Assembly: GCA_965651895.1 (NCBI GenBank)
Contig: CBFGUY010000002.1
Span: forward strand, 2,411 to 66,410
DNA length: 64,000 nucleotides
Source of the DNA: an uncultured Algoriphagus sp.
GTDB taxonomy: Bacteria; Bacteroidota; Bacteroidia; Cytophagales; Cyclobacteriaceae
Reading direction: 5' to 3'
Positions 50,599-52,416 of this stretch are shown here, in pieces (within the stretch, counting starts at the first letter, position 1; each line of letters begins with the position of its first letter). A program made the position numbers and the translations under genes. The notes under the pieces were generated by a model, which was not told the origin of the DNA, did not search any database, and worked only from the letters and a program-made list of their open reading frames with translations.

Positions 50599-52416
50599 TT
50601 AGTTTAATTGTGGTGCTTCTTTTTTCCTGTACAAGCTTTCTGTTAATTCTATTGCCCATTCCGAAACGAAATCATTTCTCTTACGGGACAGAGTGTCATT
50701 ATCATAAGTCAATCCTTCAGTGGGAGTACCAGAGAAAGTAAGTGCTGTATTGGTGAGGCCGGATTCATCCACCGGATGGCCTTTTTCATTTATGGATAAA
50801 CAGCCAGGCCTATAATCAAGCTTTCCTTCCTGCCTATTTACGTAGGGATGGATGAGACCCTGTTTCATCATATTCTCAAATAATTCTCCCGCACAGCGGT
50901 GCAGTTGGACTTTAGGAATCCGGGCATCGATGAGTATATCGGTTTCTATACTTTTGCCATTCTGCATAACTAAGGCGAATTTGTCCTTTTGTGCCAGTGT
51001 AGGGTTTTGTGAATAAGAAAAGTCTATAAGTCCAGCCTCGGCTAAAGCGTCGATTTTTCTCATATTCTCAATAGGAGGCCCATAGGAAAGCCTGTTCAAT
51101 TGTCCTGCATATTTTTCAAGAAATATTTTTTGGGATTGAGGCAATAATCCTCCGAATTTATAAAGTTCATTAAACGCCTCACTGAGGTGACGCCAAAGGT
51201 CTGCAGTAGCTGAAAATGCACTTTTTTCCACCCCGATTTCTGCTTCTTCGATACACTTACGGATAAAATCCAGTGTATTGTTATGCAGGTCTTCCTTCGG
51301 CAAAGGCTTCATAAGGAAGTCATGAAAATCAAAATGTGGGATATCAGGATGTTGATCTAGAAAAGAGTCGATTTGAAATTTCACTTTACTAAAATCCTGT
51401 GAAAGATGGAGGTTCAGACCATACTTTTGGAAGACTTTGGAGTAATACATTGCAATGAATTCCTGCTCGATCAAAGGTAAAAGCTGCCTCTCAAAATCAT
51501 ATTTTCCGTCCAGCATTTCAATGAATTTCAACAAATCTTCGCAGAAATAATGTGGTTTATAATCAGGTTTCCCATAGGTACTTCCACGTGGCATCATCGT
51601 AAGGCCGGATTTAGAGAAAGGGTAGATTTTTTCTGGTTCCAAACCAGATCTAACATATTTTATTTTCTTTCCTTTCGATAAAAACCGGCCGTTTCTTCCT
51701 TCCGTCAAACCTAATGCTGCATCTATAAATGTCAACCCCATTCCTTTAATCGCCACTTTGCTGCCCTGAGGGACCTGATAGAGACGTTGGGAGACAGGAT
51801 AGATAAAGTCAATGTAGTGGTCGCCAGAAGGAAGGTCAGGATCATTTACTGAAGGATGGCCTGTGCAGATAAGGGTGCTCTGGATGTTGCCTTCTGATGA
51901 TTGGGATTCCAAATAACTATCAGTGTAAGTGAGACGATAGCACTCTCCCTCTTTCTCTATATTTGTCACCTCCCCCATGTGTTGAAAGATCTTAATGTGC
52001 GGAGGACAAGAGTTAACAAGCTGTTCAAATCCTTCAGTAAGATATCTGCCCACAGTGGCTCTTGATGAAAAACCATCTGCTTTTGCCTCAGGGAATTCTT
52101 CCTGATTTCTGCCCAACCATTCTGCAAAAGATTTGGTGTCCTGAACGATAGCCTTGGGAGCGTTGTCAGACCACATATTGATGTAGCCGTTTGCATAGTT
52201 CATCAGAAGATAGGGAGGCTGCTTGGGGTTGTAGATATCGCCTGCACCAAAGGAATCTGATCTATTAAAGAGGTGAAGCTCTATAGGGAATGAATTTTCC
52301 TTAAGAGCTAGATTTGCAAGTAAGCGCTCCAGTCCATAAAGGCCTTTCGGGCCAAATCCTATAAATGCAATTTTTACTGAATCTTCTTCTGGCATAAATG
52401 GTGATTTCAGAGTCAT
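50599..52416 (-). CDS. FAD/NAD(P)-binding protein of the CreE/FzmM/HpyO-like flavin monooxygenase family
   Basis: IGFGPKG, GAGDIY...QP..LLMN, SRATVGRYL, CTGH, GMGLTFID...LTEGRNGRF, SYGPP, DARIP, GTPTEG. Confidence 0.8.
   Translation of the reverse strand: MTLKSPFMPEEDSVKIAFIGFGPKGLYGLERLLANLALKENSFPIELHLFNRSDSFGAGDIYNPKQPPYLLMNYANGYINMWSDNAPKAIVQDTKSFAEWLGRNQEEFPEAKADGFSSRATVGRYLTEGFEQLVNSCPPHIKIFQHMGEVTNIEKEGECYRLTYTDSYLESQSSEGNIQSTLICTGHPSVNDPDLPSGDHYIDFIYPVSQRLYQVPQGSKVAIKGMGLTFIDAALGLTEGRNGRFLSKGKKIKYVRSGLEPEKIYPFSKSGLTMMPRGSTYGKPDYKPHYFCEDLLKFIEMLDGKYDFERQLLPLIEQEFIAMYYSKVFQKYGLNLHLSQDFSKVKFQIDSFLDQHPDIPHFDFHDFLMKPLPKEDLHNNTLDFIRKCIEEAEIGVEKSAFSATADLWRHLSEAFNELYKFGGLLPQSQKIFLEKYAGQLNRLSYGPPIENMRKIDALAEAGLIDFSYSQNPTLAQKDKFALVMQNGKSIETDILIDARIPKVQLHRCAGELFENMMKQGLIHPYVNRQEGKLDYRPGCLSINEKGHPVDESGLTNTALTFSGTPTEGLTYDNDTLSRKRNDFVSEWAIELTESLYRKKEAPQLN

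Follow-up and report, generated by a model that had tools for sequence, protein, structure and literature searches.

An FzmM-fold flavin monooxygenase encoded between an SbnA-family enzyme and a Y4yA-family decarboxylase in a widespread orphan cassette

Results

The Algoriphagus operon and the fold of its flavoenzyme

The 64,000-nucleotide stretch of DNA analyzed here, referred to as the window, comes from an uncultured Algoriphagus sp. (contig CBFGUY010000002.1, positions 2,411 to 66,410) and carries four co-directional genes separated by gaps of 10, 6, and 12 nt. The first operon gene (52427–53413, minus strand) encodes a 328-residue SbnA-family pyridoxal 5'-phosphate (PLP)-dependent β-replacement enzyme of the TIGR03945 family. 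The second gene (50599–52416, minus strand), which is the subject of this work and starts 10 nt past the sbnA-like stop codon, encodes a 605-residue class B flavin monooxygenase with the FzmM fold that belongs to Pfam family PF13454; its open reading frame (ORF) is intact, begins with ATG, and matches these coordinates exactly. We refer to its product as the flavoenzyme. The third gene (49153–50592, minus strand) starts 6 nt past the flavoenzyme stop with a TTG codon, with an ATG two codons on, and encodes a 479-residue Y4yA-family fold-III PLP-dependent decarboxylase. Finally, a lineage-specific fourth gene (48376–49140, minus strand), 12 nt downstream of the decarboxylase, encodes a 254-residue DUF3891 protein.

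The initial annotation assigned a CreE/FzmM-like architecture to the flavoenzyme from a series of eight motifs, and all eight are indeed present at the expected spacing: the FAD-binding GFGPKG (residues 20–25, 52342–52359, minus strand), QPPYLLMN (residues 66–73, 52198–52221, minus strand), RATVGRYL (residues 119–126), the second dinucleotide, or NADPH, motif GMGLTFID (residues 225–232, 51721–51744, minus strand), which aligns with GLGLNFFD of FzmM, and then LTEGRNGRF (residues 237–245), GPP (residues 446–448), ARIP (residues 498–501), and GTPTEG (residues 563–568). Residues N73, G225, G227, and D232 are invariant in 59 homologues, and the GxGxxG motif for FAD is invariant or nearly so among homologues. 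PF13454 (NAD_binding_9) is the sole Pfam family matched by the flavoenzyme, at 100.1 bits (E = 1.6e-28) against a gathering threshold of 21.8. No NCBIfam equivalog was found for it; the best-scoring model, a generic one for FAD-NAD(P)-binding proteins, reached 40 bits, where the cut-off is 783. A sequence search of the PDB returned one sequence, 8CP2/8CP5, with residues 15–572 of the flavoenzyme aligned to residues 4–571 (E = 4.6e-27), and 8CP2 is the FzmM-type L-aspartate N-hydroxylase of Streptomyces sp. V2 (PMC10404684).

An AlphaFold2 model built from 59 homologues (predicted local distance difference test score, pLDDT, 92.9; predicted template modeling score 0.91) contains the three-domain fold in which a large helical substrate domain lies between the FAD and NADPH domains. 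When the model was compared with the PDB using Foldseek, three FzmM chains were placed on top with template modeling (TM) scores of 0.81 to 0.82 and E values of about 1e-39 (8CP2: TM 0.81, E = 9e-40). The next structural neighbors were putrescine N-hydroxylase, SidA, KtzI, PvdA, DesB, and DfoA, with TM scores of 0.43 to 0.47 and a probability of 1.0, followed by flavin-containing monooxygenases (FMOs). The family match, the alignment with 8CP2, and the model together exclude chance matches of the motif series, and the resemblance of the flavoenzyme to FzmM and CreE is real at the level of the fold.

The substrate pocket differs from that of FzmM

Residues of the pocket were assigned by alignment to 8CP2, where those named for FzmM are R13, W51, N62, R266, R276, R409, R412, N413, R416, V571, and R577 (PMC10404684). 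Among these, Asn62 sits over C4a of the flavin and is needed for the oxygenating flavin intermediate of class B monooxygenases, the aspartate entry chamber is formed by R13, R276, N413, R416, and R577, R412 is a neighboring residue of the arginine cluster, and the single replacement N413E was sufficient to abolish aspartate hydroxylation (PMC10404684). In the flavoenzyme the positions of R13, W51, N62, and R266 are occupied by K24, which lies in the GFGPKG motif, Y62, N73, which is the last residue of QPPYLLMN and the equivalent of Asn62, and R277. The position of R276 has no arginine, and those of R409, R412, N413, R416, V571, and R577 are R409, S412, E413, N416, D572, and R578. The alignment therefore indicates that the oxygen-activating core has been kept and the aspartate entry chamber has not. 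By comparison, three Streptomyces enzymes linked to CreD genes keep every cited arginine, asparagine, and tryptophan, with alanine or valine at the position of V571.

Two segments differ from their FzmM counterparts. The helix WRHLSEAFN (residues 408–416, 51169–51195, minus strand) stands in place of the FzmM cluster L-R409-xx-R412-N413-xx-R416, and among 120 homologues of the flavoenzyme W408 is found in all 120, S412 in 97, and N416 in 96, with proline, aspartate, or glutamate at position 413. The segment DNDTLSR (residues 572–578, 50683–50703, minus strand), in which D572 takes the position of V571 and R578 that of R577, is a signature of the clades linked to SbnA that are described below; D572, N573, and D574 are invariant in the 120 homologues. 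The core of this segment, N-D-x-L-S-R, occurs in nearly all rows of both SbnA-linked clades, with one row each having glutamate for the aspartate, or leucine and threonine for the serine and arginine, and it was not found in 11 other PF13454 proteins compared. [quoted passage not shown] The suggestion that the enzyme oxidizes an amine other than aspartate is thus likely to be right, since its pocket differs from the aspartate pocket.

Phylogenetic separation from the aspartate N-hydroxylases

CreE oxidizes L-aspartate to nitrosuccinate, and CreD, a member of the fumarase/aspartase superfamily, frees nitrous acid from it for use in natural products that contain an N-N bond. As CreE references we took the PF13454 genes of three Streptomyces plasmids, each of which is directly followed by a Lyase_1 gene annotated as pcaB, which is the CreE/CreD arrangement. 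In maximum likelihood trees (IQ-TREE, LG+C20) of 33 and then 34 sequences, a set that did not include HpyO, the CreD-linked enzymes form one clade (support 100/98-99), and all SbnA-linked proteins are set apart from CreE and the other PF13454 proteins by a branch supported at 100/99. The SbnA-linked proteins make up two clades, and both, with few exceptions, share Y62, W408, the loss of R412 and R416, and N-D-x-L-S-R, features that are absent elsewhere. The flavoenzyme did not group with the CreD-linked enzymes. Although the fold part of the CreE/FzmM assignment has held up, the flavoenzyme is not an orthologue of either enzyme, differing from them in pocket, clade, and the CreD partner.

That no CreD-like gene is nearby has also been borne out, and it extends to the whole assembly, which is 91.6% complete, a completeness within which all gene absences given here hold. 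A search of the assembly did not find CreD; the sole Lyase_1 genes are fumC, purB, and argH, each of which scores above its own NCBIfam cut-off, and a second PF13454 gene was not found either. These results bear on the possibility that the flavoenzyme is a true CreE/FzmM L-aspartate N-hydroxylase that forms nitrosuccinate, with nitrite released by an unrecognized lyase or with spontaneous formation of 3-nitropropionate. The flavoenzyme has its fold and cofactor sites in common with FzmM, and FzmM-type enzymes can give 3-nitropropionate in the absence of CreD (PMC10404684). Nevertheless, R276, N413, and R416 of the entry chamber and the adjacent R412 are all replaced, with position 413 being glutamate, the very change that abolishes hydroxylation in FzmM, and aspartate oxidation is also opposed by the 100/99 branch, by a score against 8CP2 of 98 bits compared with 710 bits for a CreD-linked Streptomyces enzyme, and by the lack of CreD in the genome. 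We consider this explanation highly improbable.

Homologues of the flavoenzyme are annotated generically, and some UniRef names include HpyO, for which we know of no assay behind the name. The names that automatic annotation gives to genes of this cassette, for example urate hydroxylase HpyO, or SbnA, Dap biosynthesis (where Dap is 2,3-diaminopropionic acid) with no further qualification, are probably misleading.

A conserved and repeatedly fused three-gene cassette

A scan with a Y4yA alignment against one genome per species returned at least about 600 stretches, of which the 80 closest loci were analyzed. In 76 of the 80, among them five with fused genes, SbnA is followed by the flavoenzyme and then by Y4yA, all on one strand, and three of the four exceptions are truncated by contig ends. 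The window cassette, with its co-directional order at 53413–49153, W408, and N-D-x-L-S-R, belongs to this same SbnA-flavoenzyme-Y4yA type. No ornithine cyclodeaminase (OCD), opine dehydrogenase, IucA/IucC, or CreD gene lies within 7 kb of the cassette in any of the 80 loci. The sbnA-like gene comes first in all 76, and its domain is N-terminal in the fusions: seven of the 120 best homologues of the flavoenzyme are single polypeptides in which an SbnA domain at the N terminus is joined to a PF13454 domain at the C terminus. Such fusions were seen in Pricia, Gracilimonas, Zunongwangia, Salegentibacter, and Mesonia, and the two fused proteins included in the tree, those of Pricia and Gracilimonas, fall in different subclades; the two genes have been fused more than once. 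The functional tie to the sbnA-like gene that was proposed for the flavoenzyme is therefore upheld by the fusions and by the gene order shared among 76 of the 80 loci. These fusions and the obligate synteny indicate that what the flavoenzyme acts on is the product of the SbnA-like enzyme or else its co-substrate.

The cassette is found in at least eight phyla, being spread over Bacteroidota, Balneolota, Verrucomicrobiota, Kiritimatiellota, Acidobacteriota, Chloroflexota, Planctomycetota, Actinomycetota (Gaiellales), and Alphaproteobacteria. The three genes keep together although the rest of the neighborhood is unrelated and the flanks vary from locus to locus, as seen in Pricia (fused), in Maribacter, in one Kiritimatiellota genome, in an Acidobacteriota metagenome-assembled genome, in Gracilimonas (fused), and on Chondrinema and Sulfitobacter plasmids. 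In the Acidobacteriota genome (L008:2189-13637) the cassette is flanked by resolvase and transposase genes. With such transposase flanks and its presence on the Chondrinema and Sulfitobacter plasmids (L010, L011), the cassette looks mobile. A Cyclobacterium locus (L040:10143-10616) has a second, partial Y4yA-like ORF with 63% identity to the window decarboxylase, about 1.7 kb downstream of a complete cassette.

Partner enzymes and the missing SbnB

The SbnA-like protein scores 401.6 bits against TIGR03945, the SbnA equivalog model, which has a cut-off of 349.95, and it aligns over its full length with Staphylococcus aureus SbnA (5D84; E = 3e-76). It keeps K47, R132, Y152, and S185, of which K47 is the PLP lysine of SbnA and the other three serve the selective binding of O-phosphoserine (PMC12414870). 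The decarboxylase matches PF02784 (E = 2.9e-23). Its identity to two proteins that carry the annotation Y4yA family PLP-dependent enzyme is 55% (Chondrinema) and 40% (Sulfitobacter). It possesses the catalytic residues customary for such enzymes, and the PLP lysine K71, H206, the GGG loop, EPGR, and C408 are invariant. Full-text literature searches gave no characterization of the cassette or of the Y4yA family.

In staphyloferrin B biosynthesis, SbnA condenses O-phosphoserine with glutamate to form ACEGA, which SbnB cleaves oxidatively to Dap and 2-oxoglutarate (bioRxiv 10.1101/763607). A gene of the OCD family to which SbnB belongs (PF02423) was not found in the Algoriphagus assembly, and neither was an IucA/IucC synthetase of the type that makes siderophores without a nonribosomal peptide synthetase (NIS synthetase). 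Among 121 genus representatives of the same bacterial family as the window, the flavoenzyme is patchy, occurring in 12 genera, the OCD-family gene occurs in 36, and both occur in one, so that the OCD-family gene is found in one of the 12 flavoenzyme-bearing genomes, as a weak and distant match, compared with 35 of the 109 others. None of 16 OCD loci in this bacterial family has a convincing SbnA neighbor that would make an SbnA-SbnB pair.

The remainder of the operon region

The DUF3891 protein (PF13030, E = 4e-39) has invariant residues H18, H50-D51, H104, and D153, a sequence pattern that resembles those of HD-domain metal enzymes. No second Pfam family was matched even at an E value of 10, and an AlphaFold2 model (pLDDT 76.6) had no Foldseek match below an E value of 0.4. 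Among the 80 closest loci the DUF3891 gene adjoins the cassette only in some from Algoriphagus (L022, L023, and L095).

Upstream of the sbnA-like gene, an intergenic region of 325 bp (53414–53738, unstranded) is the probable promoter region of the operon; it contains a σ70-like consensus site at 53636–53607 that matches at 10 of 12 positions, although the number of such sites is not above the shuffled expectation. More generally, scans for promoters and terminators gave counts not above the shuffled expectation, and there was no Rfam match to a riboswitch or other RNA element between 47500 and 55500 at E values up to 1. A SusC/SusD pair on the plus strand (43806–48368) converges on the end of the operon. 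A conserved link between this pair and the cassette was considered and rejected: of the 57 related loci of full length, only about 10 have a TonB-dependent receptor gene no more than 7 kb away, a frequency judged, without a control, to be near chance for Bacteroidota.

Discussion

The cassette is a widespread orphan pathway comparable to the segment of staphyloferrin B biosynthesis that SbnA, SbnB, and SbnH carry out, except that another enzyme stands in the middle and a synthetase is missing. In both systems an SbnA-family enzyme comes first and a fold-III PLP-dependent decarboxylase last, and both plausibly follow the logic of making a Dap unit and then decarboxylating it. Where they differ is that the window cassette lacks SbnB, an NAD+-dependent member of the OCD family, and has a flavin monooxygenase in its place. 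Furthermore, the genome search turned up no NIS synthetase, so that a citryl conjugate, on which SbnH works, cannot be the substrate of the decarboxylase.

The flavoenzyme would be an NADPH- and O2-dependent class B flavin N-monooxygenase partnered with the SbnA-family enzyme and the Y4yA-family decarboxylase, and from the altered pocket, the clade, and the linkage to SbnA we infer a substrate, a reaction order, and a product. In our preferred reading, whose chances we regard as about even, it N-oxygenates an amine supplied by the SbnA-like enzyme, most likely ACEGA, and so fills the SbnB slot by oxygen chemistry, leaving the decarboxylase to form an ethylenediamine-type or N-hydroxy diamine. 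The SbnA-like enzyme would condense O-phospho-L-serine with L-glutamate to give ACEGA, whose secondary amine would be N-hydroxylated by the flavoenzyme; loss of water, or a second oxygenation to the nitrone, followed by hydrolysis would then release 2-oxoglutarate together with L-Dap or N-hydroxy-Dap, and the decarboxylase would convert these to ethylenediamine or its N-hydroxy form.

Several points weigh against this proposal. The flavoenzyme clade is known from sequence and predicted structure, and the pocket residues have been placed by alignment. For the SbnA-like enzyme the residues that could be checked are those that bind O-phosphoserine, and glutamate is a presumed nucleophile. Cleavage of a secondary amine of the opine type is not known to us for any class B N-hydroxylase. 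The Y4yA clusters of rhizobia and Agrobacterium, which offer the comparison with a redox enzyme in the same slot, are only 26–28% identical, so that the shared slot is an analogy, and the third enzyme of the Sinorhizobium fredii NGR234 cluster is an opine dehydrogenase that may run reductively. Finally, no conserved exporter or downstream enzyme was found that hints at a use for ethylenediamine or its N-hydroxy form.

The position of the flavoenzyme in the operon, which is that of the OCD/SbnB gene in the Agrobacterium cluster, and its two dinucleotide-binding domains would also be consistent with a flavin dehydrogenase or oxidase that is a direct analogue of SbnB, passing a hydride from the C-N bond of ACEGA to FAD and the electrons on to NAD(P)+ or O2. 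The structural comparison speaks to this point, because the top 50 neighbors listed for the model consist of N-hydroxylases and FMOs and include neither amine oxidases nor dehydrogenases, and the asparagine required for the oxygenating flavin intermediate is invariant. We regard a dehydrogenase or oxidase as quite improbable. An SbnB-equivalent dehydrogenase that simply releases Dap had been raised in the initial annotation as an outcome that would overturn an oxygenase assignment; the SbnB role, though without any family relationship to SbnB, is now part of the preferred reading, but the fold implies N-oxygenation rather than simple dehydrogenation.

A more serious consideration is the order of the first two reactions, as the fusion of SbnA with the flavoenzyme is equally compatible with either. 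The flavoenzyme could act before the SbnA-like enzyme, in line with the N-hydroxy nucleophile proposed in the initial annotation, by N-hydroxylating an amine or free amino acid such as L-glutamate, to which the SbnA-like enzyme would add the aminoacrylate through N or O, with the decarboxylase then producing an N-O diamine. FzmM-type enzymes act on the α-amine of an acidic amino acid (PMC10404684), and four basic pocket residues are kept in the flavoenzyme. In addition, a CysK-family enzyme with a hydroxylamine-type nucleophile is known, namely O-ureidoserine synthase, which is among the PDB relatives of the SbnA-like protein. This order of events is nonetheless somewhat unlikely, given that SbnA comes first in every one of the 76 ordered loci and at the N terminus of the fusions, and that the invariant D572 and D574 and the lost R412 and R416 suit a substrate with an extra amine better than they suit free glutamate. 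If the attack were through N, the flavoenzyme-first route would give the same N-hydroxy-ACEGA as the SbnA-first pathway that we favor.

The flavoenzyme might instead act later, on a primary amine, converting L-Dap, should the SbnA-like enzyme or some other activity form it directly, or a decarboxylated product such as N-(2-aminoethyl)glutamate or ethylenediamine to an N-hydroxy, nitroso, or nitro compound. The class B N-hydroxylases SidA, PvdA, KtzI, DesB/DfoA, and putrescine N-hydroxylase, its closest structural relatives after FzmM, share its NADPH/O2 chemistry and hydroxylate primary amines, namely those of ornithine and of diamines, and the acidic pocket residues of the flavoenzyme would suit a cationic amine. 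These enzymes nevertheless belong to another Pfam family, are about 415 to 450 residues long, lack the large helical substrate domain, and serve the production of hydroxamate siderophores. A plasmid of Deefgea piscis (NZ_CP054144.1; L124:3457-7894) has sbnA, sbnB, a PF13454 flavoenzyme gene, and thrH in a row beside insertion sequence elements. In the tree the Deefgea enzyme and a Methylomagnum protein are sisters on the CreE side. The Deefgea enzyme has an R..RD..R pocket and is probably the Dap-directed N-oxygenase of another cassette, so that family members acting on Dap probably exist. However, the window flavoenzyme and the Deefgea enzyme belong to opposite sides of the tree and differ in their pockets, and members of the window clade, unlike the Deefgea enzyme, never stand beside SbnB in the loci examined. 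In the Algoriphagus genome, moreover, no route from ACEGA to Dap was found once SbnB is lacking, and fusion with SbnA rather than with the decarboxylase argues against action after decarboxylation. A later step on a primary amine is accordingly unlikely in our estimation, though less so than the dehydrogenase and aspartate alternatives.

The preferred reading, N-oxygenation of the SbnA-derived amine, can be set beside further systems with related enzymes. The L-alanosine cluster (bioRxiv 10.1101/763607) is similar in encoding an SbnA homologue, AlaA, together with a CreE homologue, AlaI, but it also encodes SbnB (AlaB) and CreD (AlaJ), and the two pairs work separately, whereas the window cassette has neither SbnB nor CreD. 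The aspartate enzymes FzmM, CreE, and AlaI themselves (8CP2, PMC10404684) share with the window flavoenzyme the three domains (TM 0.81), the FAD and NADPH motifs, the catalytic asparagine, and the residues R266, R409, and R577, but are only about 21–27% identical to it, and the window enzyme has the new W408 and DNDTLSR and is partnered with an SbnA-like enzyme and a decarboxylase instead of CreD. The y4yB-y4yA-y4xP-y4xO-y4xN-y4xM cluster of S. fredii NGR234, whose function has been called "enigmatic" (PMC3973906), likewise combines a Y4yA-family PLP enzyme and an SbnA-like enzyme with a third redox enzyme, but the latter is of the opine-dehydrogenase family, IucA/IucC and a major facilitator superfamily (MFS) exporter are present, and identity to the window proteins is 26–30%. 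On pNGR234a (L018:6540-13585), inside a type III secretion locus, we observed genes for a ParB-N-terminal-domain protein, Y4yA, an SbnA-like protein with an opine-dehydrogenase-family protein, IucA/IucC, and an MFS transporter. Agrobacterium pAt (L021:5548-9408) has a ParB-N-terminal-domain protein, Y4yA, and an SbnA-like protein with an OCD protein, beside phosphoenolpyruvate-mutase phosphonate genes.

Other PF13454 enzymes were seen in settings of their own. On a plasmid of Parageobacillus thermoglucosidasius (L105:4004-8252), the gene for a flavoenzyme with the complete aspartate pocket, placed as sister to the CreD-linked clade, precedes those for an MFS transporter and a nitronate monooxygenase, and CreD does not follow it; this set may form and detoxify 3-nitropropionate. 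Sister PF13454 enzymes on a Staphylococcus epidermidis plasmid (L016:1-9052) and a Streptomyces plasmid (L102:2038-9734) are surrounded by a common gene set of leuC/leuD, a TauD-family dioxygenase, an isochorismatase-family hydrolase, a cupin, and an aminotransferase, with a LeuA-family protein in S. epidermidis only, and this looks like a third, cross-phylum cassette. Small mobilizable Helicobacter pylori plasmids (L017:2462-4529) carry a PF13454 flavoenzyme gene beside a 4-oxalocrotonate tautomerase family gene.

To our knowledge, FzmM/CreE-type enzymes are known only as aspartate oxidizers that supply nitrite for natural products with N-N bonds, and nothing was found that points to the N-N chemistry suggested in the initial annotation. 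The window flavoenzyme is instead a member of a large sister clade of FzmM and CreE, with a different pocket and a place in a compact, apparently mobile three-gene cassette. If it cleaves or N-oxygenates ACEGA, the cassette would provide a new, SbnB-free way to Dap-type building blocks, and ACEGA would be the first secondary-amine substrate for this type of enzyme. We tentatively raise the further possibility, which we rate below the preferred reading, that the cassette is an oxygen-dependent, SbnB-independent pathway in which the flavoenzyme puts an N-O bond on the SbnA-derived amine, so that the product of bacteria from many phyla would be a small C2/C3 diamine of an N-hydroxy or aminooxy kind, yet to be described; candidates are N-hydroxy-Dap, N-hydroxyethylenediamine, or an aminooxy analogue. 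If this is true, such an N-O diamine could work either as a minimal chelator of metals or against PLP enzymes, as an antimetabolite.

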